This document shows positions 18,601 through 46,350 of a DNA stretch of 64,000 nt, one piece after another. This DNA comes from Nemertoderma westbladi (Eukaryota; Animalia; Xenacoelomorpha). How positions within the stretch are numbered: position 1 is the stretch's first letter; each line of letters begins with the position of its first letter. Where the stretch lies: the NCBI GenBank assembly GCA_032718475.1, contig JAUCBJ010001204.1, positions 40,618-104,617 of the forward strand, read 5' to 3'. Made by a program: the position numbers and the translations under genes. The notes under the pieces are model-generated. The model was not told the origin of the DNA, did no database searches, and was given only the letters and a program-made list of their open reading frames with translations.

Positions 18601-20079
18601 ATCTTCCGAGTGGGCACAACGTTTCCTCGTTTGGCCGCTTACGGCGGCACCAATGTCCCTCCCTCTGCCCGGTTGGACGGCCCCGCGGATATTCGCAGTC
18701 CTCCTACTATCCTCTGTTGCCGGGTGCCATGGTTCACTTAACTCACCATATGCATTATCTGCCGACGCTCGTGGGACATTCTCTGCCCCCCCCCCCCCCC
18801 CCCCTCTCATCCACCGTCGGGTGCCATAGTTCACTTAACTCACCGTGCGCATTATCCGCCGACCCTCGTGGGACATTCTCTGCCCCCCCCCCCCTCTCGT
18901 CATTAATTGGTTGTGGCGGGGTGCCCGTAGCCCCCAGCCCCCCCCCCCCCCCACCCGTCACCTCTTATTTCGCCCCATGTTCCGTTCCAGTCGACACGTT
19001 AGTTCTACCCTCACTGGGTTCATTCACCCCCGCTCCTCCCTGCGCAACTGCGTGGCCTTGTTTTCTCTCACTAGGCAAATTGCCTGTTCCCCCTACGTTT
19101 ATATTAATTGCACCGCTAATAGTCTCGCCCTGTTGGTTTGCTACGTTATTAATTATATTATTTTGATTAATTCCACCGGGGTTATTTATTATATTGTTAT
19201 TTGAATTATTATTTAAATTATTTAAATTATTTTGATCTACATTATTTATATTATTCAAATTATTTTGTTCACCATTATTTACATTATTACTTAAATTATT
19301 TTGTGCACCAATGTTAGAATTATTACCGGGCAAAATATTATCTCCTGCAAGAAAAGGTGCCATTTTTGCCAGTTCTAATCGGTGCTTCTGTTTCGCCTGG
19401 TATTGCATTAACCCCCTCAACCGGGTATGCATATCATCCTGCAATCGTTTGCCCGCCCTCTCTCTTTCTCTATCTTCTCTAACTCATTTGACAGTTGACT
19501 AATTCTGTCTCCCTCGCCTTCCACTCTCTACATTCGTCCACCTCCCTCGCCTCCCGCTCTTTCCGCTCATTTTCCACTACCTCCTCCCGCTCTTTGCGCT
19601 CGTTTTCCACTCTCTCATCACGTTCTTTGCGCTCATTTATCTCTCTTTCCTCCCGCCCCCTATAGTTTATCGCCACCCTCTCGGCCCTCTCTTTACACTC
19701 TCTCGCTAATTCCCTCTCCCTCTCTAGTCCCTCGTCCAATTGTCTCTCTAGTTCCTTTTGATCCAGCGCTACAATATCTAATTGACACGCCAGATCTATC
19801 TCTAACACCCTTCTTGCTTTCGCAGAGGATGTAGCGGACTTTCGGTTGAGACGGAGCTGTCTGTCCTACTAATTTTCCCGCGTTTGCTGCGATTCCTACT
19901 AACCAATGACACTGAATCTTCGGGGTTACCTCGGATTCGGTGTTGTGCGGATCCGCCCATCCCACTAACTTAATCCCCCTCGCATCTACCAGATAAGGCC
20001 CTAGGTAAACAATGCTGGCCTCCGCCACCTCGGATCGCTACAATTCAAACAGTTCAGTGGTGACCCCCGTTGCCCTCTC
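15614..20079 (-). pseudogene. gag: Outer element gag-protease, 3' part; frameshifted, RT/RNase H absent
   Basis: Fragment chain 19693-20028, 19479-19808 (coiled coil), 18965-19444 (Asn-rich), 18115-18834, 17527-17733 (BEL gag motif), 16968-17198 (LITDPVYS), 16772-17044 (DSG protease), 15910-16707, 15614-15958 (IN-tail remnant). Confidence 0.8.
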
Positions 20080-21245
20080 TGTAAAAGCTTTTGCGGAATT
20101 GGCTGGTTATTTTCCCCGCAAAGTACTCTGTAGTTGGTTTGACGGGCATAAAAGGCCGTTTCATTACTGTACTGGTGTTTTAGTGGACATAAAAAGCCAT
20201 TTCTTCTGTATGTGTACTTTAGCGGACATAACTAGCAATTTTATGTCGCAATACGCTAAAATCCTCTTGACACAGTGTAGTTACTATGACGACGGCTAAC
20301 AGCTGATCTGTACACGTGTAGCTTTTCCTTTGTCTCTTTGTTTGGACAACCAATCAGAGCGATTCTCCTGTTATTTGTACAGAAACCTCACTGTTTATGT
20401 TTACCTTTTTTGCCTGATGCCAGAAGACCGGCTTTGGAACCTCTGTGTTTTTCAGGCTTCAGTCCTACATTAGTAGGCTTGATCATCGAAACGTATATCT
20501 GTTATCAAACCACAAACAAACTCAACAAACTAATCAATGCAAATCATATTGTCAACTACAAACACCGCATTTTTACTGCTATTTACTGTCGGTTATTAAT
20601 TATATCAGTTGATGGAATATTATTATATTTGGATAATATCGGTGAATAATCATAAAACCCCCAATCTTCTTGATATACTGAAGGTAAGAGAGACCGGTTA
20701 CATATAACAATTGCGACTTACTTTAAAGTGGTTTTGGAGTGAATTTAATGCTATTTCATAGGCACTACATGAGTCGGTTGTTGTTCTCTTCATATGTGAC
20801 TAAAATCAGTGAAGGTAGGCAGATCGGTGTGCAGCATTGTGCGGTAGTGTGCATGATTGTGACTGATAACGAAGCATCTCCTAAAGAATGCGATTTATAC
20901 GTGAATCTATAGCCATCCCGTTGTGTCTAGTGTAAGTCATAACTCTGTTTACATATTTAGAGCGCCACGTCCTAAAGGAACTGTTAATATTTCCCAAAAG
21001 TGAATAATATTGGTCAGAAATTATATCTTAACGATCAGTTGAATAATACAGTAGGCCTACGCCGCAATAAGGTCAAGCCCCCGAATCCAGTCTCCCGGGT
21101 ATATCCAGCGGGTGAATGGTCGCGCATAGACTGGCTTCGGCTAATGTTGTGAATCAAATATTTGTCATAGGCTAAAGTCGATTTATAATCTAGAAGACAT
21201 ATAAATTTGGCAGGTTAAACTGCTAAAGGTCTGAAAGCGCGAACA
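20080..21245 (+). repeat. 5' LTR of inner element (1166 bp)
   Basis: TG...CA ends. Matches 34285-35471 except for roughly 15 substitutions counted by eye and one 21-bp indel. Confidence 0.96.
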
Positions 21246-21257
21246 ATAACAGATATA
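21246..21257 (+). promoter_or_regulatory. Putative self-priming primer-binding site (ATAACAGATATA)
   Basis: Immediately follows the LTR-terminal CA. Exact reverse complement of LTR 20494-20505 (TATATCTGTTAT). No TGG-starting tRNA PBS is present. Confidence 0.6.
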
Positions 21258-21525
21258 GCTTCTTTATTGCACGTAGGCAATAAAAGGGCAAAAGTACCGG
21301 TCGACCGGTAACTAGTAGGCCTAACTACCTAACCACCCGAACCGGTACTTACAGCAGTACAGGTACTAGTATTATTTCGATTGTGATATTGTATACCGGT
21401 AGGCTGTTTAAGAGATTAGGGACTGTACACCCCTTGTTTCTTTTGGAGCTTACTTATTTCTGTCAGTTTTATTTACTTGTAGGTTAATATTGAGCAGAAG
21501 ACGTGTAAGCCTGCCCAGAATATAC

Positions 21526-22105
21526 AGATAATTTGTAGGCTGGACTGTTCTCTGACTGTTGTTAAGTCTGAGGAGATTGTAGTGTGTGTAGAGCGTATGT
21601 CCGAAAACGTACTAGTTAGGAACGTAGGGGCTTCCAGTGCTGTGAGGTAAATTCCCTCGAAAGAATAAGTCGTACTACTCGGTTAGAACGCATACTAACT
21701 AACCATTTCGGAGTCTGCATATACTGTAGTTTGTTTAGGCTTGATAGTGGTCTGCCAGCGTTTGGTCTGTACTTTGTTTGTGTAGTCTGTACGGGTAGCG
21801 TAATATTTCTTATTTAGATAATTTGTAGGCTGGATTGTTGCCTAGCTGTTGTTAGGTTTGAAGAGATTGCGGTGTATGTACAGTGTATGTCCGATAAAGT
21901 ACTAGTTAGGAACGTAGGGGCTTCCAGTGTTGTGAGGTCAATCCCCTTGAAAGAATAAGTCATACTACTCAGTTAGAACGCATACTAACTAACCATTTCG
22001 GAGTCTGCAAATACCGTAGTTTGTTTAGGCTTGATAGTAGTCTGTCAGCATTTGGTCTGCATTTTGTTTGAGTAGTCTGTGCGCGTAGCGTAATATTTAT
22101 TATTC
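21526..22105 (+). repeat. 290-bp tandem duplication in the 5' leader of the inner element
   Basis: AGATAATTTGTAGGCTGG starts at 21526 and 21816; the two copies are colinear with scattered substitutions. Confidence 0.9.
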
Positions 22106-23441
22106 AGAGTTTATGCGATTATTCGCAACATTCATATCCCCAAGTTTATTCCTACAGTAATTGTGCTTGTTATATATACCGTTATAGTTAAATTAACCCC
22201 GGTACTACATCAGGGCTGCTTGGCGTAGGTAAAGACTGGTGATTTTGTGCCCCGGTCACTCCAGCAGATGCCGTGGTTCTTTTAGCTGTACAAGTATTTC
22301 TAACTGCTGATTATTTGTTGTATAAGTACTTGTACCTAATTTAGGGTTTAGTGTACAATACTTTCCGAAGGTAATTAGTGTGTAGGCAGTATATTTGTGT
22401 TGTAAAGTGGTTAATAGGCACGTTGGTTCTGGTAGACCGCGGTAATTAACTTCTAGGTAGGAACACTCCGTGATACATAACGTAGTACTTATAGCGATAC
22501 GGCTATAAGTCGTCAGACGGTGGTATTTTTCCTATCTGGACAACACAGTATATTTACTACTGCTTTGTTATTTTCAAATACCGTAGTACCCTGTCTGTTG
22601 CAATAACCAGATATTCTAACCCTTTGTTAGGCTGGTTTGTAGACTTCTTGTAAAATTACCCTAAAAATTCGTACGTGTAATTTTTGTGTTTATTTAGAGA
22701 TTGTAATCTCACCCCGAATTGTACGTAATTTGTAGTATTAAGTAACTTAGGTAAATTATAATTATTTGTTTTAGTGTCCAACAAGTAGCACTTCACTGAG
22801 AGCGTACAGCTTCTGTGCAGTGACTCCTTCCTAGAAATAATAACATTTATTTCAAATATTGACAAAACCCATTATACGGGTATATATATATTATAAATCA
22901 ACTCAAACCGATTTATAAAATAGTAGGCCTGTCTTACAACAATTAGGTCTTAATGTCAGTTGGACTACTGCTTAAATAACGGTAATCAAGTAAAGTAAAG
23001 TAACCAAGTAACCCCTAAAATTCAGAAATTCAATTATTCTAAAAATAATTGACATACCGGTATTTACAATAGGCTCATTGTATTTATTTCTATAAATTTA
23101 GGCCGAAATTATACCGGTATTCTGTAATTAATTCTAGTCCATAATTATACTTATATATACTATAAGTGTAAGCTGTATACTGGTATTCACGATAGGCCTA
23201 TTATATATTTATATATATAGTTGTGCTAAAATTATATACCGGTATTCTGTGACAAACCTAGTCTGTAATAATACTTATATATATACTATAAGTGTATACC
23301 GGTATTCTAATATATTGTATATATATCACGTTACATAGAGTAACGATATCGGCAATTAATTACTAGGCTAACAGTGATACTGAATTACTAGATTTGCTTT
23401 AACTGTAACATAGCAGTAGGCATTCAACTGTGCAAACAAAC

Positions 23442-25727
23442 ATGTCTGACACAAAGCAAAACCTGTCAGACAGTCTCCTAGATACGACCATCTGTGACCC
23501 AGACAGGAGTGTGGAACGTGTGAGACCGAAGTTCAACTCACCTCCTACTGTAAGAAAGATCATCCCTCCAGTAGTAATATCAGACCCTAGGCTAGTCCAA
23601 CATCGTAGGTCTATCATAGGCACTCGAGCTCAGGTCAAGCGGGACCAAGAAGCAGCGGAACAGCAGCAACACTCGAGCCGAGAACTTATTTCTCAGCGGA
23701 CCGACAGCTCCAGTGGTGCGGATACTGTAGAGCTGACACCCGAGCGCGGAGCTAAGATGGCAGATGCGGTTTATTCGGATCCCCTTCTCATCCTTCCTGC
23801 AGCCGTACTCGCTAGGGTATTGATTGCGGTGGAGGAACACCAGATTGATTGGGCGAGAAGTAAGCGATCGACCAAGGATAGTTATGCAGGATACACAAGG
23901 GAAGAACTGAAGTCTATTGTCGAGTCGCAATGGAACTTCCCCGGACCCGGACTCCCGTTTGACTTATCGGAAGCTGCCTGGGAAGGCATACACAGGATGG
24001 GAGTGACAGAAGAAAACCAGCGATCCAGCTGTGTGTGGAAGAGGTCAGCAGCAGGATATGTACAGGGATTCTTCAGCTCTATGGAGCGATTAGAGGAACA
24101 ACTGTTTCGACAACCCCAAGGACCTCAAGAGCAGGGAGAGCTGCTTTATCAAGTTAGAGAAAGAATTCTACGAATCAGACTAATCTTATCGGCCTTTGAG
24201 GAGGCTTCGAAAAGAAGACAAGACACGTCGTTGCAAGTTGCCATAAAGACTTGGTTTCAGCGGGTGAGTCTCCAAGTTCAAGGAACTGCCCAGTGGAAAT
24301 CTCGGCTGGCCGAGCGCTCAACCCATGGAGAATCAACAGACGCTACATTTTCCCAAGTGGAAAGTGAAGCGACGGCAGAGAAACCGCATGAGAGGGACGC
24401 TATTGACATCTATCTGTCAGACTATCAACGATTTGTAGGTGACGAAGAGTTGAGGAGATGGCTGTCTGGACTTAGCCCTAATAGTGAAGGAGCCAAGCTT
24501 GTGTTGGACGCAATCGATGCGGAGATGATAGCTGCGAACCAAGCTAAATTTGATGAACGCCTCCGCATCGCTAGAGTCCAAGAAGAACAAGTAAAGAAAA
24601 AACGTATAGAAGACAGAAAGACAGCGGCAGCGGCAGAAGTTGAAAGAAAAGCGGCAGCGGCAGCGGCAGAGGCAGAAGCGGAAAGAAAGGCGGTAGAAGT
24701 GGAAAGAAAGGCGGTAGAATTGGAAAGAAAGGCGGTAGAAGTGGAAAGAAAAGCGACAGTGGCAGCGGCAGAAGCGGAAAGAAAAATAGCAATGGCAGAA
24801 GCAGAACGAAGGGCATCTGAAGAGACCACCCAACTAGAACTGGAAAATATTCAAGAGAATCAAGACTGCATAAATAAACAGTTAACAGCTAGTAATATGC
24901 AGATGATGAATCGATCTACTCCCAAAAGACAGGGATATACATCATCTGATGAAGGCGATACCACCGATCCTGAAGGCGGAGGAAATAGATCTCGTCTAAG
25001 CAGACGTAGAAGAATGTCCCACCGTCAGAAATTGCCTGATTTGCCCCCAGCTGTTAGAAGGCAACTAACTAACACAGGCTTAGGTAGTACAGAACCCACA
25101 GACCAAATAATTAAAATAGAAAGACTCCCTACTATAGTAGATGAGCCTGAAATAATTAGGCCTGTTCTTGAAATCACCCCTTCGGTGATAGAGACACCTG
25201 TGCTCCCAGAACCTACCTCTAAATTCCCTTTGCACAGTACTAAACTACCTGTGCCCCACAAAACAACCCCTGAGACAGTTCATGTCCTGGACTCCGAGCG
25301 GAATATTAATGATTTGTCGCCCGTTGTCCCTCGTCCGCCCGCTACAACGTTGGCGGCTCCCGCTTCGGCGGTCGAGTGGGTGGATGAGAGGCGGCGGGGG
25401 ATGGATCTCCTGCTCGGGCAGATGCAGGAGACTGTTCAGCAGTTCAGGGGCACAGTAAGGGAAAGTAGGTTAGAGTTGCAAGAAGTGCAGCAAAGTATCG
25501 CGTTAGAACGCGATAAATTAGTAAATACCCAAAGAGGTATACCACCACCACCACCCCCGGTAACAATGTGTCAACCTGTTAGGTCTGAAGTATCTCATGC
25601 GCAAGGTGTAGAGCCTACACGCATCTATACTGCTAGTGAAGTGGAAACTCCTATAGTCAACCCTATTAAGGGTAATTATAAACCTGTTGACAATGATATT
25701 CCATATAGACCTGATCATAATCCGTGA
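23442..25727 (+). CDS. gag: Gag N-terminal region (coiled-coil, AEAERK repeats, Pro-rich)
   Basis: Long ORF with first ATG at 23442. Same frame as 25764-28016 and separated from it by a single TGA. Confidence 0.75.
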   Translation: MSDTKQNLSDSLLDTTICDPDRSVERVRPKFNSPPTVRKIIPPVVISDPRLVQHRRSIIGTRAQVKRDQEAAEQQQHSSRELISQRTDSSSGADTVELTPERGAKMADAVYSDPLLILPAAVLARVLIAVEEHQIDWARSKRSTKDSYAGYTREELKSIVESQWNFPGPGLPFDLSEAAWEGIHRMGVTEENQRSSCVWKRSAAGYVQGFFSSMERLEEQLFRQPQGPQEQGELLYQVRERILRIRLILSAFEEASKRRQDTSLQVAIKTWFQRVSLQVQGTAQWKSRLAERSTHGESTDATFSQVESEATAEKPHERDAIDIYLSDYQRFVGDEELRRWLSGLSPNSEGAKLVLDAIDAEMIAANQAKFDERLRIARVQEEQVKKKRIEDRKTAAAAEVERKAAAAAAEAEAERKAVEVERKAVELERKAVEVERKATVAAAEAERKIAMAEAERRASEETTQLELENIQENQDCINKQLTASNMQMMNRSTPKRQGYTSSDEGDTTDPEGGGNRSRLSRRRRMSHRQKLPDLPPAVRRQLTNTGLGSTEPTDQIIKIERLPTIVDEPEIIRPVLEITPSVIETPVLPEPTSKFPLHSTKLPVPHKTTPETVHVLDSERNINDLSPVVPRPPATTLAAPASAVEWVDERRRGMDLLLGQMQETVQQFRGTVRESRLELQEVQQSIALERDKLVNTQRGIPPPPPPVTMCQPVRSEVSHAQGVEPTRIYTASEVETPIVNPIKGNYKPVDNDIPYRPDHNP

Positions 25728-25763
25728 AATTTATATACCGATAACTCGATATTAAATAACACG

Positions 25764-28016
25764 ATGGCCCAAGAAAGTTTTACGCGTCAAATGGCTAGAA
25801 CCGAAGCCCGTCAAGCGGTAAAGGTGGGAGAGATAGTCAAGTTCAATGGAGATGAGATGAAATGGTTACCTTTTAATGAATATTACAAAGATAACATACA
25901 GAACTCTGTGCTATCTAACGGAGAGAAACTTAGATTCCTTATCGAGTGCTTGGAAGGATCTCCCAAGTTAATGGCGTTAAAGTTTATTGGACATCCAGAT
26001 GGATTAAGACAAGTTTGGGATACACTAAACATCAGGTATGGTAATAGGACTAACATAGCTAGGTATTTATATGCGAAATTAATGGCGCCCCGAAAGTTTC
26101 TTAGCAGCGGGATTATAGAGTTTTCCGACGAGATTCAAGAGATCTGTAGACAACTAGATTGGTTAGGTAAGTCTCATGAATACCAGAATTCTATGGTTGT
26201 AGGAACCTTAGCATCTACTTTGCCCAAGGGTGGAGTAGGTACACGCTGGGACAAGAAAATGTTATATATGATGGAACAACAACGACGAGACCCTACCATG
26301 GCTGATCTCATGTCATTCTTAGATGGAGAGGTAAAATTACAGCTCCTAAAGCAGTCCAGAGAGAAGACACCGGAAAATAAGGTAAGTGAGAAACCCGTTT
26401 CTAGGAGAAAGGTAATACCAGTGTGTTATACAGACGACGGCGAAAGCCAGGCTTCTCAAGAGGAAGACAGCGGGAAAGACACTGAAAGATCTTACTATGA
26501 AAACAAAGCGCCTAAGGACGTAAGTAAATTCAAGTCTCGAACCAATGATAGGAGAGAACAGGTAAGAAAAACTCCTCCTACGTCTCCTAAGAGAATTCAT
26601 GTAGGAAAGCCCGAGGAAAGAACGAGTGTGCACAACGTTACCCAAAGTAAGGTAAGTAACATCAAACCAAAATGTGCGCTGTGTGACGGGCCCCACCGTT
26701 TAAGTGCGTGTGATGAATTCCTGAGAAAATCATTAAAGGATAGACGGGAAGTCATGTGGGATAAGCGGTTGTGTTATAATTGCCTCAGACAAGGACACCA
26801 ACGGCGAACCTGTTACTCCGACGCAAGGTGTGCGAAGTGCGGCGCAAAACATCATATCTTGTTGCACACTGAATTCGAACGAAACAGCCCGAGTCAGGTA
26901 AGTGAGTCCGAACTACATGTCCAATTCAGTGATGTGAACGACACTGACCAAAGTTCTGAGATGGAAGGATTCTATACAGACGAATTCTCCGACGAAAACG
27001 AATCCTGTTACCTGATAAATACCGCAGTGTATCGAGCACTTACGTATGAAAAGGACACCGACAGCGAGCTCCCCCTAACTACTTCTGACCGACAACCATC
27101 TTGGAAAGCACCAACTTCCAATGTAGGAATCCGAGAATTTCCCGTAGTGCAGTTAAGGGTCCACGGACCTAAAAGGAGTTATACAGTGAACGCCCTCCTT
27201 GACTCCGGTAGTACAGGAACATTCATCGACAAAGAACTAGCCGAAGACATCTTTGCTGGACAACCCAAGTTCCGAACTAAGTTAAACATGTCAGGAATTA
27301 TGCAGGTTTGGAAATCTACAGTAATAGCGGATTATTATGTAGGTGCGTTGTCCACCCCCCAGGATGAACTAGGAGAACACAGCATAAGGTCAGTAAAAAT
27401 GGTGGCGATAAAGAACTTCGCTACCAGCCAAGTAGAACCTTATAACTGGGATGAGGATGATTCCACCCAGCAGCTTAATATACCTAGATTCAACACAGAC
27501 TACCCTGGAGTGCAAATACTCATCGGCCAAAATGCGCATGAGGCGCTTGAGACATTGGAGAAACGGCCTGCTCAACCGCAACCACTACAAGCCTATGCGG
27601 GAAGAACTAGAGTAGGTTGGTACTTTACTGGCCCTTCCCGTAGAACTCTCCTAGAAAGGTTACCAAAAGAACGGGTATACCAAGTAAGTGAATGGGAAGC
27701 GGAGAGCAGTGAGGTAGACGACCCAACTGAGGGAACACCATACTCCTCAGATAATGATGATATTAACTCCAATGTAGATCAATGGAGACATTGCCCCGAG
27801 ACGATTAATCTAGCCGACATCGCTTCCAGAGGAGTAACTCCTCAAGAACTGACAGATACTCCAGACTGGTTAGGTGGACCCGACTTCCTAAGTCAAGAAG
27901 ATGAATGGCCTCCCCATCTTACCACGGCTGAGATTAGACAAGCCAAGGGAGCGGAGAAAGTCAAACCTAAATCCCGGGCGAGTAAATCTCTAAATCAAGG
28001 TTATTTAAACCCGTGA
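25764..28016 (+). CDS. gag: BEL/Pao Gag core, CCHC zinc knuckles, aspartic protease and RNase H C-terminal remnant
   Basis: IVKFNGDEMKWLPF..LSNGEKLRFLIECLEG (BEL gag). Knuckles CALCDGPHRLSAC, CYNCLRQGHQRRTC, CAKCGAKHHILLH. Protease ALLDSGSTGTFI, then VQILIGQN..RTRVGWYFTGP. Pao RNase H tail QWRHCPETINLADIASRG..WLGGPDFL. No YxDD RT motif. Confidence 0.92.
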   Translation: MAQESFTRQMARTEARQAVKVGEIVKFNGDEMKWLPFNEYYKDNIQNSVLSNGEKLRFLIECLEGSPKLMALKFIGHPDGLRQVWDTLNIRYGNRTNIARYLYAKLMAPRKFLSSGIIEFSDEIQEICRQLDWLGKSHEYQNSMVVGTLASTLPKGGVGTRWDKKMLYMMEQQRRDPTMADLMSFLDGEVKLQLLKQSREKTPENKVSEKPVSRRKVIPVCYTDDGESQASQEEDSGKDTERSYYENKAPKDVSKFKSRTNDRREQVRKTPPTSPKRIHVGKPEERTSVHNVTQSKVSNIKPKCALCDGPHRLSACDEFLRKSLKDRREVMWDKRLCYNCLRQGHQRRTCYSDARCAKCGAKHHILLHTEFERNSPSQVSESELHVQFSDVNDTDQSSEMEGFYTDEFSDENESCYLINTAVYRALTYEKDTDSELPLTTSDRQPSWKAPTSNVGIREFPVVQLRVHGPKRSYTVNALLDSGSTGTFIDKELAEDIFAGQPKFRTKLNMSGIMQVWKSTVIADYYVGALSTPQDELGEHSIRSVKMVAIKNFATSQVEPYNWDEDDSTQQLNIPRFNTDYPGVQILIGQNAHEALETLEKRPAQPQPLQAYAGRTRVGWYFTGPSRRTLLERLPKERVYQVSEWEAESSEVDDPTEGTPYSSDNDDINSNVDQWRHCPETINLADIASRGVTPQELTDTPDWLGGPDFLSQEDEWPPHLTTAEIRQAKGAEKVKPKSRASKSLNQGYLNP

Positions 28017-28420
28017 TAGATCTGTCTGTACTACACATTGCCAGGGACGACGCTGTGGATCTAAACTCCCCCACCGCGAACCGATCTGTTGTGGAGATCA
28101 GAGAGAGAGACTGGAGATCTGGAACACCAGACGTCTCGCCGGGACTCTCACCTCTCCTGCCGGGAGCGATGGACCACTATAGATCCTGGAATCGGCTTTG
28201 TAAAGCCGTCGTGTATTTGAAGCGATGTTTCTATCATCACTATTCCAGGACGAAGAGGAAACCTGGAATTGTCTTCGAGACACAGCAGCTCAATCGCCCA
28301 GTTGGTCGTTTATGTTTACTGGAACGAGACCGAGAACTGTCCGGAAACTATGGAAGGCAAGATACTCTTCCCACAACCACCTCCCTAATCCAACAAACAT
28401 CTAGGGACTCCCCAACGTAA
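28013..28420 (+). pseudogene. Residual pol tail of the inner element
   Basis: HYRSWNRLCKAVVYLKR resembles the BEL RFSSW.KL.RV.AWV.RF segment. It is fused to LNRPVGRLCLLE, resembling the BEL integrase terminal RP..KLC.L motif. Confidence 0.65.
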
Positions 28421-30127
28421 CAGCGTCTGGAGTGGGTGTGTGACTATATTATTTTATATTTGTTTTTATTATTTTATATTTATGTATGTATTATTATGTA
28501 ATTTTATTATAATCGTTTTCTTTAATTTTATTTAGTAGAATGTTATTTTAGCGATTATTTAGGAGATTAGTGCAATATATATTAGTGTTTATTACTTAAT
28601 TACTTATATATTATATATTTAGTGCGACGGCGAGAAATAATTCTTTTTCTCTTTCCTTACTGTCCGTATTACATTATAAATACGTGACTACAGTAAGATG
28701 AAATATCCGTACTTATTAAAGTACAATAAAGCTCCTACTATATTCAAGTATTATTGGTAAGTAGAGTATTAGGAATGCAAAATTCAGATCCTCGTGTCTC
28801 GGCTAAACCAAGCTCTGGGTAGACCTTGGAAACGACTTGCCTCTTCTCACTGACATTGCTTCGTGCGATATTGCTCTCATACCGTATATTAAATAATACA
28901 TATAGTAGCGTGATGTCCCTTTAACAGTAGCGTATAACGCAAAAATAAATCTGTTAAACCCTTTGACCATCTGTAATTCTAGTCGATTAAGATATCGCGG
29001 CACCCACCGATATACTTGAAAGACAAAATTCTAGAATCAATGGTTAACGTCCCCAGACATGTTCTGGAATAAACCGGTGCCCATCTTAAATATTAATTAT
29101 TAATATTTATAAAATCTGTCAAATAGATACAATAGAGTAACTACTTACAAGTTAACTCTAGAAAATCTATAAATTAAAATCTGTCAAAATTTAGATCCTT
29201 TAAAATTCTAGTCAATTAAGATATCGTAGCACTTACCGATATTCTTAAATAGACCAATTTCCTAGAATCAAGGATCCCAGTCCCCAGACATGTTCTGGAA
29301 TAAAATTGTGTCTATTTTAATATTAAATAATAAAATTTACGGGAATAAATTTAAATTCATATCTTTTAATGAATTTGATAAATTTTCATTTTTATGCAAT
29401 TTATAACATTACCAAAATTCCATTAATTAAGAGATCATGGGAGCGGAGATTCACCTTATTAAGTGTATTAGTGTGCGAGAATCTCCAATATATAGTCAAT
29501 AGCCGGTAAAATTCATAAAATCATGTATAAAGAGGAATATTGACAATTAAAGAATTACTATTAAATAGCATCCCAGATCTGTATGCATGAGAATTACCCT
29601 AATTCTACTGCTAGCTTTCCATAATGTCACCATGGCAACAACCACGCTAGAATTAGAAGTGAGTTAAAAGAACAATAAAGGCTTGCCCCATTGAATAGCA
29701 TAAGGAATAAAATAGCACACTGCTAGTATCCCAGGATACCCAATAATAACGTGGCATTCTGGAAGGCACTGACTAATGGACAAATGGCCCGAATGTGTGC
29801 GATTTGTGACGGTTGTGTGGAATTTGTGCGTTTATAGGTGAATGTTACTACTAAAGTGTGTTTACAGTAGCGAGTCGCAATTGTGAAAGTAGCCCTAACT
29901 CTCCAGTAAGAACCTGAAGTAAATCTAAGCCTTTGGGACGGACGGTGGAGTGACTCGCGCTGGTTGTTGTGGTCGTTGTGCAGCTACTACGTTGGCGATA
30001 GGCACATCGGCGAAAGTACACCAGCGCTGAGGATCTTGCGCTGTCCGGGGGCCGAGAGGGGTAGGCAGCGACGCCCGCTAGCCTAAATACAAACTCATTA
30101 TAATATTGATAAACTCATATAGCAGCT

Positions 30128-33100
30128 ATGACTGAGTTGATAGAAGATGATCTTGGTATCAGGGAGCGATATACTTTACCTTTACAAGTGTTTGTTGACA
30201 GCTTTATACGCGGCGACGCTGGTCCAACTACTACGGAGGACGATGGTCGTTATATCGAACCGCCAATGTCCCAGGAGCAACTTACGCGTGAATTGGACTA
30301 TAGAAAATTCACCGCTCGCTATACGCATCGTAATGGTACGTATATGGACTTCTTAACTACCGGCCATCCTATCGATTTACACGATATGGACGATATCGAC
30401 ACCGAAAGGGAAATGGTCCTATTTAAATATCATACCCAGTGGAGTCGGAATGATAAATTGAGAATCGAATGCGAAAATTCTATTCGAAATCGACTCGAAA
30501 GAGAAGACGTTAAAGAACCGGATAAACGCGGTAACTCCAACGTATATTTGGAATTCTTGAGAGAAACATTGTAAAACCGAATAAATATCACCCGCGTTTC
30601 CCCTACAAGACGTGCGTCTTTGGTATTATTGCGATGAATGCCCAAGACCCAACCAACAAACGGAAAGACGTAAACATCCGTAGAGACATTGCTTTAAACA
30701 CGGTTTTACTCGCTATATTTATGGGAGTTTCGAGCGAAACTTGTTCGATGTATCACCTACGCTCGCTCGATTCAAACGATCCTTAAATAAACCTATGATC
30801 AGAGTTCCGGGATACTCGGTCAGACCTCCTCATTCCTCAGTGAGACCTCAAACGCTTGATCCTAATAGTATAACGGATCCCCCTGAACTGTACTCACTAT
30901 TTAAAGATCTTGTGTTACCCGAACAGTTGATCGGTAGCACTCCGGTAGTGGGCTCACTAGATATTCGCCAACCCTACCTAGCCGGATTAGGACGCGGTCA
31001 TCTAATATCGCCGTTTAACCCGTACAACCGTCCAGGCTTAAACCCGATACAACCCGTTACTGAAGTCGAAGAGAGCGTTGTACGAAACGCTTTAGACGCT
31101 ATTCAGCAGAAAATCGGAAAAGGAACTTACGATTGTTTAGAGAAACGCAAATTGCAGCAACAAGTCCAAGCGGTGAAAGAATTAGCTTTACCCCAGTTCA
31201 ATAGAGAAATACAGGATCTCGAGGAAGACATCGAACGTGGACGCACCTACTCTTTACAAGAGTTCCTAGACGAGCGTTTACAACAGCAAGCGGAGGAAAA
31301 TCAGCTCGAGGAGAGACATATAGAAATGGATGAGAGAGAAGAAGCAGCTTTAGCCCAGCCGGAAGCTCAAATTCTTATAACGGATCTCTATTCTAAAACC
31401 ATCATCCATCCTTCGATGGTTCCCCATTTCGGAGACAAACTCTTTGCCACGGCACAGCCTCAACCGGTTGATATCAACCTAAGATCTCGAGATCTTATCG
31501 CTGACGCTCCTATGTTGCAACGTCCGCCAATCGAGGCCGCTCGTGTCGATGGTTTACTCGTTGAACCTCCGGACAATAGAGCGGATCTTGTCCGTCGCAT
31601 GGTACACGATGTTAACATACGCGCTAGACCTTTACCGAACTCGTTTTATGGGATCAAAGATCACCCTTATTACGTCAATCTAACGCAATATTACATGGTA
31701 AAACCGGAAGATCCTACACATAGTCTGAGGTTTCTACCACTAATAAATCCTCTCGATCTTGTCGAACTTGAACAACTGCAGAAACATCTGGACCAGTTAG
31801 TTAAAGTAAATTCATTTCGAAAACCCTATAATGTTTCCAGGATAGAGAAAGAGACAATACCTCCGTATAATCTTGATGGATTCATCAAAACTCGATTAGT
31901 ACACTGGAATCTCGATGTGTTATTCGAGGAGGAAAGAATACAACGATATGGAGATTTAGAAACATATACTACACAATATTTAAAGTATAGAGATCTACCT
32001 AACGCTAGCGAATGCGCTACCTTGTGGCATCCAGTGGGAATGACTCTAGAAAACGCCACAAAAGAGTGGAATGAGACTCTTAACGTTATCGAAATGTATG
32101 GAGTTGTCACTTACGATAACGAAGGTAGCGTTCCGGTTGGAGAACTGGGAACTACGCGAATGATACACATACGAGGACTAGCTGGTTCTACCCACGTATT
32201 TACTCGAGCGTGTTCCGATGTGATTGATTATTCCTTTGAGACTCTAACCAAGACACAAAAGAAACTCCGACATGGACAATTCGAACTCGCGCAGCGTTAC
32301 GTCACCGACACCGAGCGCAAACCGGCCATGGGTATCGATGGATCGATGTTACCCCAGCCCGTGCTCGAGATGTTGTTTAACGAAAGAATCCTTAAAATCG
32401 GCTCAGCTGTTTATGGAGATCTCCAAAACGACTTTAGGAACATGGAAAACATTCCATACCCTTTCATTGATACTCAGCTGATTGCTCCCTGGGCAGAAGG
32501 CCGAGGTTTCTTCTGCACTATGTACGCAAATACAACCAGCGGCATTACTAAAGTACAACGAACCTCCATCGGACATCTTGCCTTTCAAGAATACGGATGG
32601 AATTTCGAGGTTGAAAATCCTATTAACTATCAACAAGTATATGGAGATCATTATTCTCGATTATACTTTGACGGACCATTGACCGCACCTGGCACCGTGT
32701 ATAGCTTTATGATTGTACCACTTCGTCCCTCCTTAGCTATATACACGATCTTTGAAAAAGCCGCACTTGCCGGTTGGCTAGCCGATGTGTGCAGTCGTAC
32801 CATACGCGCCCATCCCTTAATACTTGGAACCAAACTTGCCAAGCTAGATGAACACAATAAATTCATCCGCTTCGAATGTTTCAGGCGCTTTTTGACTCCG
32901 TTCCGTAACGTTGATAGTCAATTCAAGGACCGCGCTCTGACCAAACTCAGCCTAAGAGACTCAGCTGCGGAGAAGTTAAACAGCGCGGGATTCGCCCTTT
33001 TCAAGGACGTTTGTATACAGAACTTACATTCATCTGTTATACAAAGACCTCGAATACCCACGGGTTATTCTGTCGTGGAAGTTCAGACAGTGGGTTCACT

Positions 33101-34207
33101 TGCGGAGACAGCCGCACCTATCTCAGCTATGCAATTGGAGGACGAACCAATATGCTTAGAATCTGAGGAGATTCAGCCTACAGCGCCCCGGAACAGCGAT
33201 AACGACTACGTTTTGGAATGGTATCAAGGTCCACAATGTCTCACCGCATACGATTATCGGCACGCCAACTATGTTTCTCGAAAACGTTGCCGATTATGCG
33301 CATCGAGAAATCATTTCACCCCTATGGACTCAGACGTACCCTGCTCCTATTTCCACGAACAACCGATGATATAGATCTATTGTGCGTATTGCAGACTTAA
33401 TAACTCGCACATTTTTGCAGTCTGCCCCCAATTTATGACTCAATGCCACCACTGTCAACTTAAAGGACATGCCAGTTTTAATTGCCCTTTTAACCGCGAT
33501 TTGGAAAGCGTAGATGAGTTGATTACCCTGCGCTACATCCGAGCTTGGGAAGCGAACGCGGATTTGCATTGTGAGTCACGCCATCGCTATTACCCTGGAC
33601 GCGCCTACGAGGGAGTTTACGCGTTCCATCCTTATCTATTCGCGTCTGTTGAACAAAAAACACGCACACTGAGTTATGAACTAATGAAGCGTGTATTTCC
33701 ACCAAATTTGTTCGAAAATATCTCAGGAACGTCAATCCTAACGATATTAATTCATACCATTTGATCAATTTCATCCGTCAAGACCCTGAGTATGGCGATT
33801 TATTTATCAACTCGCACCCTGAGTTACAGGAAGTATCTCGACGGCCCTACGAATATCGAGCCAGAGAACGTGAGCTGGAAAGAACCATTAAACCGAGGAA
33901 GTTTCTCACCACTCACGGTCCACCTACCGCTATTGTCCAGACGACTCGTCAGGGACCAGTAGGAGCTGCTGTCCTAAGACGCGCCCTAAAGGCCGTTGAC
34001 CTCGCTCCACTGAAGTTGATATCGATCAACCAGGTACCTCGACCGGCGGATACACCGATCGTAATCCTAAACCTTCTGATGCAATTGTATTGCACCCTTC
34101 ACCCAGGAGTTACAGCCCTCTTAGTAAAGTGGCTCGCCCCAAAGAGAAAAGGACTCTTGCTAGCCTCAAAAAACTGCGTAAACGCCGTCCGCGTAAGAAA
34201 GACTAAC
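30128..34207 (+). pseudogene. Extra cargo gene of the inner element: DEDDy-like 3'-5' exonuclease, three CCHC knuckles and a basic tail; broken by a few stops/frameshifts
   Basis: ORFs 30128-30574, 30741-33374, 33435-33764 (same frame as the preceding ORF, one TAG between) and 33761-34258. An alternative-frame tail ends KKLRKRRPRKKD* at 34207. Confidence 0.7.
30741..33374 (+). CDS. 877-aa ORF containing a WRN/EXD/RNase D-like DEDDy exonuclease domain
   Basis: ExoI GVVTYDNEG (D 32115, E 32121). LPQPVLEMLFNERILKIGSAVYGDL resembles LP..L..LL.DP.ILKVG.....D (ExoII D 32418). Then PFIDTQLIA, SIGHLAFQEYG, and PLTAPGTVYSF..SLAIY resembling PLS..Q..YAA.DA..SL.LY. Confidence 0.75.
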   Translation: MFDVSPTLARFKRSLNKPMIRVPGYSVRPPHSSVRPQTLDPNSITDPPELYSLFKDLVLPEQLIGSTPVVGSLDIRQPYLAGLGRGHLISPFNPYNRPGLNPIQPVTEVEESVVRNALDAIQQKIGKGTYDCLEKRKLQQQVQAVKELALPQFNREIQDLEEDIERGRTYSLQEFLDERLQQQAEENQLEERHIEMDEREEAALAQPEAQILITDLYSKTIIHPSMVPHFGDKLFATAQPQPVDINLRSRDLIADAPMLQRPPIEAARVDGLLVEPPDNRADLVRRMVHDVNIRARPLPNSFYGIKDHPYYVNLTQYYMVKPEDPTHSLRFLPLINPLDLVELEQLQKHLDQLVKVNSFRKPYNVSRIEKETIPPYNLDGFIKTRLVHWNLDVLFEEERIQRYGDLETYTTQYLKYRDLPNASECATLWHPVGMTLENATKEWNETLNVIEMYGVVTYDNEGSVPVGELGTTRMIHIRGLAGSTHVFTRACSDVIDYSFETLTKTQKKLRHGQFELAQRYVTDTERKPAMGIDGSMLPQPVLEMLFNERILKIGSAVYGDLQNDFRNMENIPYPFIDTQLIAPWAEGRGFFCTMYANTTSGITKVQRTSIGHLAFQEYGWNFEVENPINYQQVYGDHYSRLYFDGPLTAPGTVYSFMIVPLRPSLAIYTIFEKAALAGWLADVCSRTIRAHPLILGTKLAKLDEHNKFIRFECFRRFLTPFRNVDSQFKDRALTKLSLRDSAAEKLNSAGFALFKDVCIQNLHSSVIQRPRIPTGYSVVEVQTVGSLAETAAPISAMQLEDEPICLESEEIQPTAPRNSDNDYVLEWYQGPQCLTAYDYRHANYVSRKRCRLCASRNHFTPMDSDVPCSYFHEQPMI

Positions 34208-34276
34208 TGTTTAGAGTATTTTTATATTTTAGAAACTGTGATTTTTTATATTTTATAGAATTAAATCCCATTTTCT

Positions 34277-34284
34277 GGGAGCGG
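34277..34284 (+). promoter_or_regulatory. Polypurine tract (GGGAGCGG)
   Basis: Directly precedes the TG of the 3' LTR. Confidence 0.6.
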
Positions 34285-35471
34285 TGTAAAAGCTTTTGCG
34301 GAATTGGCTGGTTATTTTCCCCGCAAAGTACTCTGTAGTTGGTTTGACGGGCATAAAAGGCCGTTTCATTACTGTACTGGTGTTTTAGTGGACATAAAAA
34401 GCCATTTCTTCTGTATGTGTACTTTAGCGGACATAACTAGCAATTTTATGTCGCAATACGCTAAAATCCTCTTGACACAGTGTAGTTACTATGACGACGG
34501 CTAACAGCTGATCTGTACACGTGTAGCTTTTCCTTTGTCTCTTTGTTCGGACAACCAATCAGAGCGATTCTCCTGTTATTTGTACAGAAACCTCCGGGAA
34601 ATCGCGCAATGCATTACTGTTTATGTTTACCTTTTTTGCCTGATGCCAGAAGACCGGCTTTGGAACCTCTGTGTTTTTCAGGCTTCAGTCCTACATTAGT
34701 CGGCTTGATCATTGAAACGTATATCTGTTATCAAACCACAAACAAACTCAACAAACTAATCAATGCAAATCAGATTGTCAACTACAAACACCGCATTTTT
34801 ACTGCTATTTACTGTCGGTTATTAATTATATCAGTTGATGGAATATTATTATATTTGGATAATATCGGTGAATAATCATAAAACCCCCAATCTTCTTGAT
34901 ATACTGAAGGTAAGAGAGACCGGTTACATATAACAATTGCGACTTACTTTAAAGTGGTTTTGGAGTGAATTTAATGCTATTTCATAGGCACTACATGAGT
35001 TGGTTGTTGTTCTCTTTATATGTGACTAAAATCAGTGAAGGTCGGCAGATCGGTGTGCAGCATTGTGCGGTAGTGTGCATGATTGTGACTGATAACAAAG
35101 CATCTCCTAAAGAATGCGATTTATACGTGAATCTATAGTCATCCCGTTGTGTCTAGTGTAAGTCATAACTCTGTTTACATATTTAGAGCGCCACGTCCTA
35201 AAGGAACTGTTAATATTTCCTGAAAGTGAATAATATTGGTCAGAAATTATATCTTAACGATCAGTCGAATAATACAGTAGGCCTACGCCGCAATAAGGTC
35301 AAGCCCCCGAATCCAGTCTCCTGGGTATATCCAGCGGGTGAATGGTCGCGCATAGACTGGCTTCGGCTAATGTAGTGAATCAAATATTTGTCATAGGCTA
35401 AAGTCGATTTATAATCTAGAAGACATATAAATTTGGCAGGTTAAACTGCAAAAGGTCTGAAAGCGCGAACA
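34285..35471 (+). repeat. 3' LTR of inner element (1187 bp)
   Basis: Copy of 20080-21245 with an extra 21 bp (CGGGAAATCGCGCAATGCATT); followed by TSD CTCTC. Confidence 0.96.
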
Positions 35472-35984
35472 CTCTCACTTGCTAGTTCCCCCTGTCCAAA
35501 TCGGACTAGATAACGAAAATGTTTGTTGCACTCACCTAGCCTTTGGTACAACTTGGGCTGGTCTACCTTTCTCCCCTCCCTAGCGTCCTTCAACAGCCTC
35601 TTTGCGGCGTTGTATCCTCGTCGTAGGCGATCACTCATCCCAACGTCTTCCTCGTGGACTTTGCCTTCCCTCCTCGCCCCGCGCCCTACCGTCGGCCCTA
35701 CTGTCGCCATTCCGGTGGGCCGTTCGCCGCCCTCGGCCAGTGGTTGGCCTGGCGATTTCGGTACCTCGTCCGCCACTGGGATCTTGCGTCGACTTGTTTT
35801 CTCTCCCTCCCTGTACTCGGCCGCCCTCCTCCTCGATGTCCGGAGCCTCCCTCGTTGGCGATTCCGGTGTGGCGGGCCGGTACCGCCTCGTCGCGGCCTC
35901 TCGAAACGTTTGGTCTCTATCGCTCGGGGTCCGCGGCAGAGTCCCTTTGGTTTCTGAACCTCGGGGCGTTTGTTCGCTCATCAT
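35472..35984 (-). pseudogene. gag: Outer element gag, 5' part
   Basis: ORFs 35631-35984 and 35441-35776. Removing the inner element and one TSD copy joins ..GELASE-RATGVTTELFEL*RSEVAEASIVYL in frame with ORF 19693-20028. Confidence 0.75.
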
Positions 35985-36042: not shown

Positions 36043-36968
36043 TGTGACGGAATCCACTGGAGTTGACAGTGGTGGATTCCGATCGGTGTGTGGATTGTAC
36101 GCATCGTCGCATCTGTGTGCTGCTGGGCTAACGCTGGATATATATATATTACGCCGAAGGCCCTTGAAAACGACAGAGTTAAATTGTCAGTATTAATAAT
36201 CACAGTAATTGATAATAGCACAGTCTGAATATAATAATATGCAATACAACAGTCAATAACAACGACGGTCAAAACTATTCCGGTCTCACAACTGTAAGGA
36301 AATCAACTAATCTAATAATCAGTAATCACAATGGTTATATCATTGACACATATTACATTAGCCCTACACTACAGGGCGGCCTTAATATCCAATAGATGCG
36401 CTCTTGTCCTCCCCAATGTACTTTCCTGCCGACTATTGGCTTAACCTGATTAATTCTCACCTCGCCACTCCCTGTTGGCATTGTCCCTTGATGCTAGCCT
36501 TACTCCGCTTTACGGGTACTCCGCGTTACGGGTACTCCGCGTTACGGGTACTCCACATTACGGGTACTCCGCGTTACGGGTACTCCGCGTTACGGGTACT
36601 CCACTTTACGGGTATTCCATGTTACGGGTACTCCGCGTTACGGGTACTCCGCGTTACGGGTACTCCGCGTTACGGGTACTCCGCGTTACGGGTACTCCAC
36701 ATTACGGGTACTCCGCGTTACGGGTATTCCATGTTACGGGTACTCCGCGTTACGGGTACTCCGTGTTACGGGTACTCCGCGTTACGGGTACTCCGCGTTA
36801 CGGGTACTCCGCGTTACGGGTACTCCACTTTACGGGTATTCCATGTTACGGGTACTCCGCGTTACGGGTACTCCGCGTTACGGGTACTCCGCGTTACGGG
36901 TACTCCACTTTACGGGTATTCCATGTTACGGGTACTCCGCGTTACGGGTACTCCGTGTTAGGTACTCA
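36043..36968 (-). repeat. 5' LTR of outer element, including the 16-bp minisatellite (36501-36968)
   Basis: Starts TGTGACGG and ends GGTACTCA. Homologous to 13266-13720 and to 12806-13265. Right boundary inferred. Confidence 0.65.
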
Positions 36969-42510: not shown

Positions 42511-43617
42511 CTACACCACGTGTTTATCCACCGATATGAGCGGCGTTTTATCCGGCAATGGGCCCGCTAGATCCCCGGACAACGGCTGAAACGTCAACAA
42601 CTTCTCGGGCATCAGCGCGACGACTTTCTTCTTCTCCACCGATTTCGCGGCCTTTCTGCGCGCCGCGGTGGCGCAAAGCAACCACATAACGGCGATAACA
42701 CTAAACCCTAGCGTACCGATGAGCATCCAGTGGGTGACGCCCAACTTACAGTTGAGCAACCGGCGTATAGCAGAGAAGATACCGCGGTTGTAATTGTTTG
42801 ACTCCTCGAAGTTGATATCTTGATCTTCCTTATTGAGATGATCCCTTACCATATCGTTAGAAACAAATTCGCCGCCCAAATCTTCTGGTTTATCATCTAA
42901 AACATATTGGTCATTCCAAACAGAAGCGTCTTCCTCTATCTCAGGTTCTTCTTCTTCATCTACCCAGGAATCTTTATCAACCCTGACATTCCCGTCTGCA
43001 TCGATGGTTTTCTCTCTTATATGGACCTCCCCATCCGCGCCTCTTTGTATGGAAACCATATGACCGGCGACTCCTTTAGGGAGACCCATTGCGTCGAAGG
43101 GGTCCTCAGAACCGCCCTCGAAGAACGAGCGCATATTCTGCATCATAGAGAGCATGCGGTCGGTGATGGAATCAAGGTTGCCGGGTTCCGCTTCGCTGCC
43201 AATATCGAACGGAGGGAATAGGATCTGGTCGGATATTCTTCCTAGAGGGATAATGCTGATGCCGCGATCCGCGCTCCCCGTTGGGTTAGCGGTGAACTGG
43301 TAGCAGCAGCCGGAATCGCCGCAAACATTGTCGAGCTCATCGTCGATAGGGTAATTCTCTTTACACGATAGGGAGCAGTCCTCGATAGCATCGTTGACGT
43401 CGTTGTCTATCAGCTGAATAACATTGTAAAGCGCGCAACCTTTTGAGCACGCTCCAACCCTGGCATCATTCCCATCGAAGGTATCCAAGCAATATGTGAC
43501 GCACGAGCGATCTGTGTTCTCTATAACGCTGTCGTTACATGTTAGCGCGGCTTGTGTCGTTTGGGTACTCGCGATAATGAGCAGTGCGAGATAAACCGAA
43601 CCCCCCATAAAATACAT
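42511..43617 (-). CDS. TMEM59: TMEM59/BSMAP-family type I membrane protein, 368 aa, uninterrupted CDS
   Basis: Signal peptide, then the cysteine pattern SCVTYCLDTF..ACSKGCALY..CSLSCKENY, resembling SCHRACQLTY..ACQRGCRLF..CESACTEAY. TM WMLIGTLGFSVIAVMWLLCAT. C-terminal AGPLPDK resembles AGPLPTK. Confidence 0.88.
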   Translation of the reverse strand: MYFMGGSVYLALLIIASTQTTQAALTCNDSVIENTDRSCVTYCLDTFDGNDARVGACSKGCALYNVIQLIDNDVNDAIEDCSLSCKENYPIDDELDNVCGDSGCCYQFTANPTGSADRGISIIPLGRISDQILFPPFDIGSEAEPGNLDSITDRMLSMMQNMRSFFEGGSEDPFDAMGLPKGVAGHMVSIQRGADGEVHIREKTIDADGNVRVDKDSWVDEEEEPEIEEDASVWNDQYVLDDKPEDLGGEFVSNDMVRDHLNKEDQDINFEESNNYNRGIFSAIRRLLNCKLGVTHWMLIGTLGFSVIAVMWLLCATAARRKAAKSVEKKKVVALMPEKLLTFQPLSGDLAGPLPDKTPLISVDKHVV

Positions 43618-43960
43618 TGTCTAAAGTCAGAAAGTCAAATGAAGTCAAAATCAAAAGTAAGGCCTACTGAATTATGTTATGCAAACAGCCTACCTATCGG
43701 TACGCACGCGGTACCTACCTCAGTTTTATATATACTTTACTGCTTTAATAAACCTAATCTTTTAAGGTTGAGGCAGTTAAGGTTGATGGTAAGTGTTGGT
43801 CAATTCGCTCCTAGAAAGACCCATTAGTTTATTATGATATTGTCAGAATCGAGTCTAACTGCCCATATAACTGTAGAGTGACTTGTTCGGCTTCTCAATG
43901 TATGAATGTAAAGTGTGTCCAGATTTATATAGCTGCAGCTGCCCTGCCACGTTAGTTAAA

Positions 43961-45212: not shown

Positions 45213-46350
45213 CTACTACTACTAGGATCGGCATGCTGCATTGCAGCTGCATTTTTAAGAATGCTGTGCCGGCTTGTCAACAAAATTGCACCGCCACAAC
45301 TCCCTATCACCCGTGACATTTGCTAGATCATCCGCATCTTCAAGGCCAGTGTCCTTTAAGATGCGTCCCAAGAAAGTCATGGGCTGTCCACCATGCTTAT
45401 TCACACCATGAGGCTGCCAAAGTACAAGATTATGCACTGGCTGCGGCTGGTCCTCACGGCGAAAGCAATGTCCTGCAAAGAGCAAAGCGGAGGCGATTTT
45501 GTTCTAGTGTCAAGCTTGGGGGAACCAATGAGACACCTCCAATGTTATATAGTGTCTGGTTGGAGATGTGTGCATTGTACTTGACACAATGAACCCGGCG
45601 TAGCATTCTTGTGAATGTGCCATCCAGAGATTTGGTGTCCTCAGCAGTTAGAGCCCAGCATGGACTCTCGTAGAGGAGTACTGGAACTACTGCTGCTCTA
45701 AATAATCGGACCTTAAGTTTCCGATTAATTCTCGTTGACTTCCAAATTCTGGAAAGCCTATTCAAGGCTGCCCATGCCTTTCCCCAACGTATTCGAAGGT
45801 CCTCACCTGACTTCCGGATCCATGATCCCAGGTAACAGAAGTCGTCCACATGCTCAAGCATACCATCCTTTGAGCTTATGCTCATCTGATCACAGACTTG
45901 CTGAGGACTTTCAAAGTTAACTGTCAAAATTTTGGTCTTTCTGGAGTTAATAAAAAGACCAACACTAGAAGCAGCATGTTCTAATGAGCTGAGGAGCCGT
46001 TGGGCTCCCTCTAATGATTCTTAGAGTACTCCTAACACCTAAGTCATCAGCAAAGTCTAGATCAGTTAGGTACTTGGCAGGATTTCCTCGACTTCTGGAG
46101 CCAGTAGGTGGAGTTATCATCACCCCATCTGCCCATCAGCCATCATCATTATGATGATCTAAGGACATGTGTAGAACATAGTCAACCACAATAATGAACA
46201 AGAATGGTCCAAGTGTGTCTCCTTGGAGGACGCCCCATAACACAGTAACACTTAAAATGGTTCTGTGTCACCGTCAACAGTAGACACAAATGTTGTCTAA
46301 CCATCGTATACTGATCTGATTGCTGCAATAATTTCAACAGGAATCCCATA
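45213..46350 (-). mobile_element. 5'-truncated RTE-like LINE with RT fragment, degenerate
   Basis: Minus strand encodes GVLQGDTLGPFLFIIVVDYVL, YLTDLDFADDL and VDDFCYLGSWI..AWAALNRLSRIWKS. (TAG)n tail at the 3' end. Confidence 0.88.

Follow-up and report, generated by a model that had tools for sequence, protein, structure and literature searches.

What does a long terminal repeat (LTR) retroelement carry in the position of env when the gene found there is not an env gene? This question is raised by a stretch of 64,000 nucleotides from Nemertoderma westbladi (positions 40,618 to 104,617 of the forward strand of contig JAUCBJ010001204.1, assembly GCA_032718475.1), referred to here as the window. 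It contains an apparently BEL/Pao-type LTR element of 15,392 bp (20080-35471, + strand), and between the pol remnant and the 3' LTR of this element lies a + strand coding sequence (30128-34207) that we term the cargo gene. An original prediction, made from the sequence alone, had assigned to it a DEDDy-like 3'-5' exonuclease domain and a set of zinc knuckles. Our analysis indicates that the protein very probably does contain a DEDDy/DnaQ-like fold, and that the gene has been maintained by selection while the element family spread. As to what the protein does, we tentatively propose that it binds RNA 3' ends with little or no catalysis.

The coding region of about 4 kb that had been predicted is present on the sense strand, but it is not a single open frame in the window copy, where two in-frame stops and three shifts of frame break it up (Table 1). 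Its main open reading frame (ORF), earlier given as 877 amino acids, has that length when counted from a TTG codon at 30741, which is also the origin of the residue numbers used here; it extends to 896 amino acids between the flanking in-frame stops (30681-83 and 33372-74) and to 859 from the first ATG at 30795. The acidic upstream frame (30128-30574), whose product has no family match in Pfam, likely encodes the N-terminal part of the cargo protein and would be joined to the long ORF. The N-terminal half of the main ORF contains an acidic, coiled-coil-like stretch, and residues 180-445 gave no ESM Atlas match above 0.79 and no Pfam match. A LOTUS- or Nanos-like identity for this half found no support.

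All of the motifs on which the prediction was based are where they had been placed: VVTYDNEG begins at residue 455, LPQPVLEMLFNERILKIG at 537, FIDTQLIA at 575, SIGHLA at 609, PLTAPGTVYSF at 646, SLAIY at 664 and CRLCASRNH at 850. The three predicted knuckles are likewise present as Cys/His fingers, but the second stop separates the second and third from the long ORF, and the third alone is a canonical CX2CX4HX4C knuckle (Pfam zf-CCHC_3, E 0.048, below the cut-off). The basic KKLRKRRPRKK was also found, although in a different frame again, which ends at 34207. Just upstream of the long ORF and separated from it by a stop, the main cargo frame contains one more Cys/His cluster (CDEC...H...HC..H, 30575-30700), possibly another zinc finger. 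In none of the four cargo frames did the Kyte-Doolittle mean over 19 residues exceed 1.38; they thus encode no transmembrane segment, and an identity as a retroelement env was rejected, in agreement with the original prediction.

Several comparisons point to a DEDDy/DnaQ-like fold for the domain. Two of them, the NCBIfam and ESM Atlas searches, used no alignment of ours and agree. Among the 18,950 NCBIfam families its sole matches, over residues 539-589, were a pair of RNase D models (E 0.0011-0.0051). In the ESM Atlas, clusters of PF01612 3'-5' exonucleases accounted for 25 of 30 matches at a score of 0.92, a value that shuffled proteins reach 4-10 times per 100. A search for the ExoI, ExoII, DTQ and PL..Y blocks in order scored 40.2, compared to a mean of 2.7 and a maximum of 22.2 for shuffled sequences (0 of 500 equal), and GVVTYDNE was the best ExoI-like site anywhere in the 877 amino acids. 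Profiles were built from bacterial PF01612 proteins; the RNase D profile gave the domain 16.9 bits (shuffle maximum 6.0) and the mixed PF01612 profile gave 9.0 bits, and with each of them 0 of 2000 shuffles scored as high. The best sequence match is to the RNase D ExoII block, with mostly plant 3'-5' exonuclease clusters as Atlas neighbors, and the suggested link to the piRNA-pathway members EXD1, Mut-7/Nibbler and Egalitarian was not borne out by sequence.

Pfam returned no match for the cargo ORF or its domain, the PF01612 gathering score not being reached, and sequence searches of the PDB with the cargo gave chance matches only. Comparison with bacterial alignments by hhalign was weak (probability 2.7%, E 0.017) and its global mode uninformative. 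Because the position that MAFFT assigned to ExoI and ExoIII shifted with the input set, motif registers were taken from the ordered-block scores. A single-sequence AlphaFold2 model of the domain had a predicted local distance difference test score (pLDDT) of 31. With an alignment as guide the mean rose to 52.5, and blocks within the ExoI and ExoII cores averaged 67-88. The structure matches of this model include RNase D, EXD2, Rrp6, Nibbler, WRN, Egalitarian and Exd1 (best match Z 8.8, root-mean-square deviation 4.3, 117 residues aligned), but since the model was built on an exonuclease alignment these matches are circular and indicate compatibility only.

The ExoI acids, D459 (32115) and E461 (32121), align with DTE, and the ExoII acid, D560 (32418), was invariant across all alignments made. 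The ExoIII tyrosine is placed at Y654 (32700) by the PL-x6-Y anchor, and SFMIVP comes next. An ExoIII aspartate (YxxxD) was not found four residues after Y654, either in the window copy or in other copies. Four candidate Y..D registers all scored below zero against the Y..D block; the register that puts D682 at the Asp position scored -3.1 and that with E672 scored -1.0. The codon for residue 658 in the window is unlike that of essentially all copies in four sequencing runs, and the middle base of those copies excludes Asp and Glu; the absence of the ExoIII Asp is therefore more than decay of the window copy. The original prediction had already remarked that this residue was not clearly present. 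D682 (32784) is an outside candidate for the fourth acid.

The element region was found in runs of three studies of one organism, and a small share of it in one run of another; none of the runs was listed as RNA, although one (X5) may be. In one run (X1), 128,060 of 8.9 million contigs fall on the 15.8-kb element, and 30 of 30 bins were covered in all four runs. The 801-bp exonuclease stretch matched 3,295, 1,144, 35 and 12 contigs in the four runs, many at 80-95% identity; these are repeat-graph contigs and provide no measure of copy number, and contig depth, lower over cargo than over gag, does not count copies either and was left out of account. The contigs show that many diverged copies of the family carry the cargo gene. 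Among the differences listed for the four runs there were no indels in the exonuclease domain. In the best-supported 40 of 185 differences, 28 of 40 were synonymous and 28 of 40 fell at third positions, where the mutation spectrum predicts 31% synonymous (p 5e-7). Sites that segregate among the copies comprised 27 synonymous and 5 replacement changes (rough omega 0.08, p 6e-10), compared to 1 synonymous and 7 replacement changes at sites private to the window (Fisher p 3e-4). Because the segregating sites are mostly synonymous and the window-private sites mostly replacements, the cargo protein was under purifying selection during the spread of the family, and the window copy has decayed since its insertion. 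Contigs of several runs also contain joints between 30496 and 33137 and between 31326 and 34044, which represent internally deleted members without the exonuclease domain. Such deletion derivatives exist, and the cargo gene is therefore dispensable in cis.

Protein searches identified no homologues of the cargo among 4,820 scored candidates from a collection of 5.8 billion or among 1.84 billion representatives, and none of 51 metagenome and 3 viral pattern matches was a related locus. A phage search gave no match, and of two plasmid matches, both at chance level (E 8), one fell on an RNase D gene. Across the databases covered, no relative of the cargo protein could be detected.

The reading that we favor, as possible rather than probable, is that the DEDDy-fold domain of this accessory gene, which selection has conserved across the family, is a catalytically impaired RNA 3'-end binder that handles the RNA of the element. 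The protein would be expressed from a separate or spliced message. Its D459/E461/D560 pocket may hold the 3' end of an RNA while cleaving it poorly if at all, as in Exd1 and Exuperantia, which, according to the available part of a recent preprint, bind RNA via inactive exonuclease domains (bioRxiv 10.1101/2025.08.03.668247). The nuclease-independent role of Egalitarian would be a further model for holding RNA without catalysis, the same portion of that preprint describing its catalytic residues as dispensable and its ExoI Glu as a contact of the RNA 3'-OH. Zinc knuckles and the basic tail could add RNA affinity and nuclear access, such that the protein binds the element's own RNA and shields or escorts it. 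The element might benefit through protection from host decay or small-RNA silencing, or through delivery of its RNA to where particles are assembled, and the window copy would have been mobilized in trans. With its remodeled active site, the protein would be a candidate element-encoded RNA-protection or anti-silencing factor that is open to testing. A bolder proposal, which we regard as distinctly unlikely, is that a giant, high-copy BEL/Pao lineage independently acquired a DEDDy nuclease and remodeled it into a zinc-knuckle silencing suppressor of ~1,300 amino acids that explains the abundance of the family. If true, this suppressor would disarm piRNA or siRNA defense by sequestering or destroying the 3' ends of guides or cleavage products.

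A number of results count against an impaired RNA binder of this fold. The Atlas matches have feature counts of 163-165, slightly below the 170 typical of same-family matches. When ExoII and DTQ are left aside, the ExoI and PL..Y blocks are modest (48 of 2000 shuffles, p ~0.024); the WRN-like profile barely detects the domain (5.3 bits vs a shuffle maximum of 5.1, 0 of 2000), and with the short-RNase-D profile it goes undetected, as 336 of 2000 shuffles score as high. The selection figures come from those best-supported 40 differences, each classed one letter at a time. AlphaFold2, given no alignment beyond Y654, leaves the C-terminal third unresolved (pLDDT <50), with a helix at 674-690 that contains D682, and one MAFFT alignment pairs LADV (D682) with the ExoIII AADV of RNase D. 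Three of the four acids and the ExoIII Tyr are retained at about 15-25% identity to relatives, a retention that would fit selection for catalysis equally well. The protein could then be an active, non-canonical 3'-5' exoribonuclease that takes its fourth ligand from elsewhere (D682 or E672) and trims or degrades the small RNAs or cleavage fragments directed against the element, or matures the 3' end of the element's RNA. This, the main rival to the favored reading, we consider rather unlikely. The PL-x6-Y anchor and the LAIY tail assign residues 654-672 to the ExoIII helix, whose Asp position is not occupied by an acid; both alternative registers score below zero in the block comparison, and in canonical enzymes the ExoIII Tyr and Asp are one helical turn apart. 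On the other side, the codons of D459, E461, D560 and Y654 are untouched among the 40 best-supported of the 185 differences, the model predicts a helix over D682, and the domain already tolerates large insertions. There are also precedents: RICE1 is described in the available text of PMC5451212 as an exoribonuclease of DnaQ fold that is active despite lacking the canonical DEDD residues, and arenavirus ExoN, in the corresponding part of PMC7968707, as a viral use of such a domain against host defense.

The fold is common to WRN-, EXD2- and Pol A-type exonucleases, and the protein might instead act in reverse transcription or integration, by trimming primer or cDNA 3' ends or by proofreading. 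Such a role, with which the basic tail is compatible and which has been suggested likewise for the DEDDy domain carried by Dada DNA transposons (in the accessible portion of PMC3706591), appears quite improbable, as the cargo is not fused to pol but forms a separate unit 1.7 kb downstream, the ExoIII Asp is missing, and the zinc knuckles and RNase D-like ExoII block indicate RNA. Finally, the gene could be a host fragment captured once and carried neutrally. The stops and frame changes of the window copy, the replacements at 7 of its 8 private changes, and the derivatives that skip the domain are all as expected for such a fragment, and the CpG observed/expected ratio, 1.23 in cargo (30741-33371) vs 0.75-0.80 in gag (23442-28013), hints at a different origin. 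However, 27 of 32 segregating differences are synonymous, the domain shows no listed indels, protein searches returned no close host-type homologue, and GC content at third codon positions is the same as in gag (0.42). Neutral single capture is largely refuted, and we hold it to be highly improbable. Neither lack of a DnaQ/DEDD fold nor a neutral one-off origin, the two outcomes that would have told against the original prediction, was what we found.

The context in which the cargo gene is found agrees with that prediction, with the gene in the env position of an apparently BEL/Pao-type LTR element. The two LTRs are 97% identical, differing by 15 substitutions in 1166 aligned bases (1.3%) and 21 gap columns. 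Because of this identity, the TGT and ACA ends and the presence of CTCTC on both flanks, we conclude that this is one integrated, fairly recent element. A canonical TGG primer-binding site was not found directly after the 5' LTR in the window copy. The gag region matches the Pfam families DUF1759 (E 3.6e-12; 47 bits, cut-off 25.4) and Asp_protease_2 (E 0.002), and 6 of 6 gag homologues in the database contain PF03564. DUF1759 is a marker of BEL/Pao, and the element appears to be BEL/Pao-type on the basis of gag and known motifs rather than a reverse transcriptase (RT) tree. The gag-protease frame is split by one in-frame stop at 25725-27 and ends at 28016 with what we take to be a C-terminal RNase H remnant (QWRH...ADIASRG). 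RT and most of RNase H are deleted near 27757, where the protease frame passes straight into the short RNase H tail; 11 contigs of run X1 diverge from the window sequence at this position, which fits sibling copies that retain the RT part. The frame at 27986-28420 is presumably pol, judged by BEL/Pao motifs; it has no Pfam match, and integrase is absent after 28420. Lacking RT, integrase and most of RNase H, the window copy is non-autonomous.

Table 1. Features of the LTR element and its cargo gene (window coordinates)
Feature	Position	Strand	Remarks
5' target-site duplication, CTCTC	20075..20079	+	identical 5 bases at 35472-35476
5' LTR, 1166 bp, TGT...ACA ends	20080..21245	+	97% to 3' LTR
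Long 5' non-coding region	21246..23441	+	290-bp tandem duplication
gag-protease region	23442..28016	+	coiled-coil N-terminal part, DUF1759, three zinc knuckles, aspartic protease (LLDSGS)
Presumed pol remnant downstream of RNase H	27986..28420	+	reading frame
AT-rich non-coding spacer, 1.7 kb	28421..30127	+	internal ~135-bp repeat
Upstream cargo frame, 148 amino acids from ATG, acidic	30128..30574	+	open reading frame
Main cargo ORF, 896 amino acids stop to stop	30684..33374	+	N-terminal half, DEDDy-like domain, first Cys/His finger
Probable DEDDy/DnaQ-like domain	32031..32810	+	ordered motifs, profiles, ESM Atlas; two insertions of ~40 and ~18 amino acids
Two further Cys/His fingers (CX2CX5HX4C, CX2CX4HX4C)	33375..33764	+	main-ORF frame, behind stop
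C-terminal cargo remnants, ending KKLRKRRPRKK	33680..34207	+	two further frames
Purine-rich tract adjoining 3' LTR	34275..34284	+	short
3' LTR, 1187 bp, TGT...ACA ends	34285..35471	+	direct-repeat alignment

A second pair of direct repeats (12806-13678 and 36043-36930, 91-95% alike, with a 16-bp tandem array) surrounds the element, and a minus-strand ORF between them (15910-16821) bears what we take to be BEL/Pao post-protease motifs. These likely represent an older LTR element into which the element at 20080-35471 inserted. Elsewhere in the window, uninterrupted minus-strand ORFs of 362 amino acids (2135-3223) and 369 amino acids (42511-43620) match Peroxin-3 (E 3.5e-7) and BSMAP/TMEM59 (E 2.5e-5), the latter being hydrophobic at its N-terminus and in a C-terminal segment. 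A highly homogeneous 35-bp tandem satellite, with units 98-100% alike, occupies positions 1 to ~1700. Fragments of other retroelements include a minus-strand match to DUF6451 (45454-46020, E 5.6e-6) and, on the + strand at 57810-59626, ORFs that resemble gag/dUTPase-region remnants by eye.

Extra genes of LTR elements reveal limits on the spread of an element in its host, and enzymes are among the known cargoes; the AlkB capture by plant Gypsy elements, as outlined in the available part of PMC9289625, is a parallel case. In the Belpaoviridae (PMC8742986) the LTRs, the DUF1759 gag with three knuckles, the protease and an extra gene in third position are all shared with the element described here, which also has a short purine-rich tract. 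Their third gene, however, is env-like (PMC8742986; de la Chaux and Wagner 2011, PMC3118150, in the portion available), which the present one is not, and they measure 4.2-10 kb according to the same sources, compared to 15.4 kb here despite the loss of RT and integrase. The word "exonuclease" is absent from the accessible portions of a metazoan BEL/Pao survey (PMC3118150) and a mollusc survey (PMC6238403). We found no BEL/Pao exonuclease cargo in the open-access literature, a scope that leaves room for an existing annotation in Repbase or in supplements.

With RNase D, RRP6, WRN-exo and EXD2 (PF01612) the domain shares the order of ExoI DxE, the L..LL.D..I.K ExoII block, DTQ, the S.G.L helix and PL-x6-Y. 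It differs from them in its low identity of about 15-25%, two large insertions, an ExoIII Asp that is not in register, a score below the Pfam cut-off, and the lack of any HRDC domain seen. The likeness to Exd1, Exuperantia and Egalitarian lies in the proposed binding of RNA around a DEDD pocket without catalysis; these are host genes with no specific sequence kinship to the cargo, and Egalitarian keeps all four acids.

The closest parallel in position comes from rotifers. The carriers of DEDDy third ORFs there are gypsy-like, unlike the apparently BEL/Pao-type carrier here. Such ORFs, mentioned for bdelloid retroelements in the original prediction, are known from the Juno and Vesta LTR elements and the Athena/Terminon elements of bdelloids, where, in the available part of Rodriguez, Kenefick and Arkhipova 2017 (PMC5408684), ORF3 likewise forms a frame of its own on the sense strand, after pol and before the 3' LTR, and lacks a transmembrane domain; portions of PMC6431247, PMC5718144 and PMC6338049 echo this description. 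The same part of PMC5408684 describes the rotifer catalytic residues as intact (DEED), with function undemonstrated, in contrast to the present cargo, in which the ExoIII Asp was not found and the domain lies within a much longer protein with Cys/His fingers. Purifying selection acts among the present copies, whereas the rotifer env- and GDSL-type ORF3s sampled there are approximately neutral within a genome. The Juno, Vesta and Athena DEDDy proteins were not returned by our protein searches with the cargo, and the two are set apart by description, not by sequence. The present element would extend DEDDy capture from low-copy rotifer elements to a second LTR superfamily, and its copies provide direct evidence of purifying selection on a DEDDy-type cargo. 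The cargo is not a canonical DEDDy family member, but a protein that resembles the rotifer DEDDy ORF3s in position and the DEDD pseudo-nucleases in its probable mode of action.

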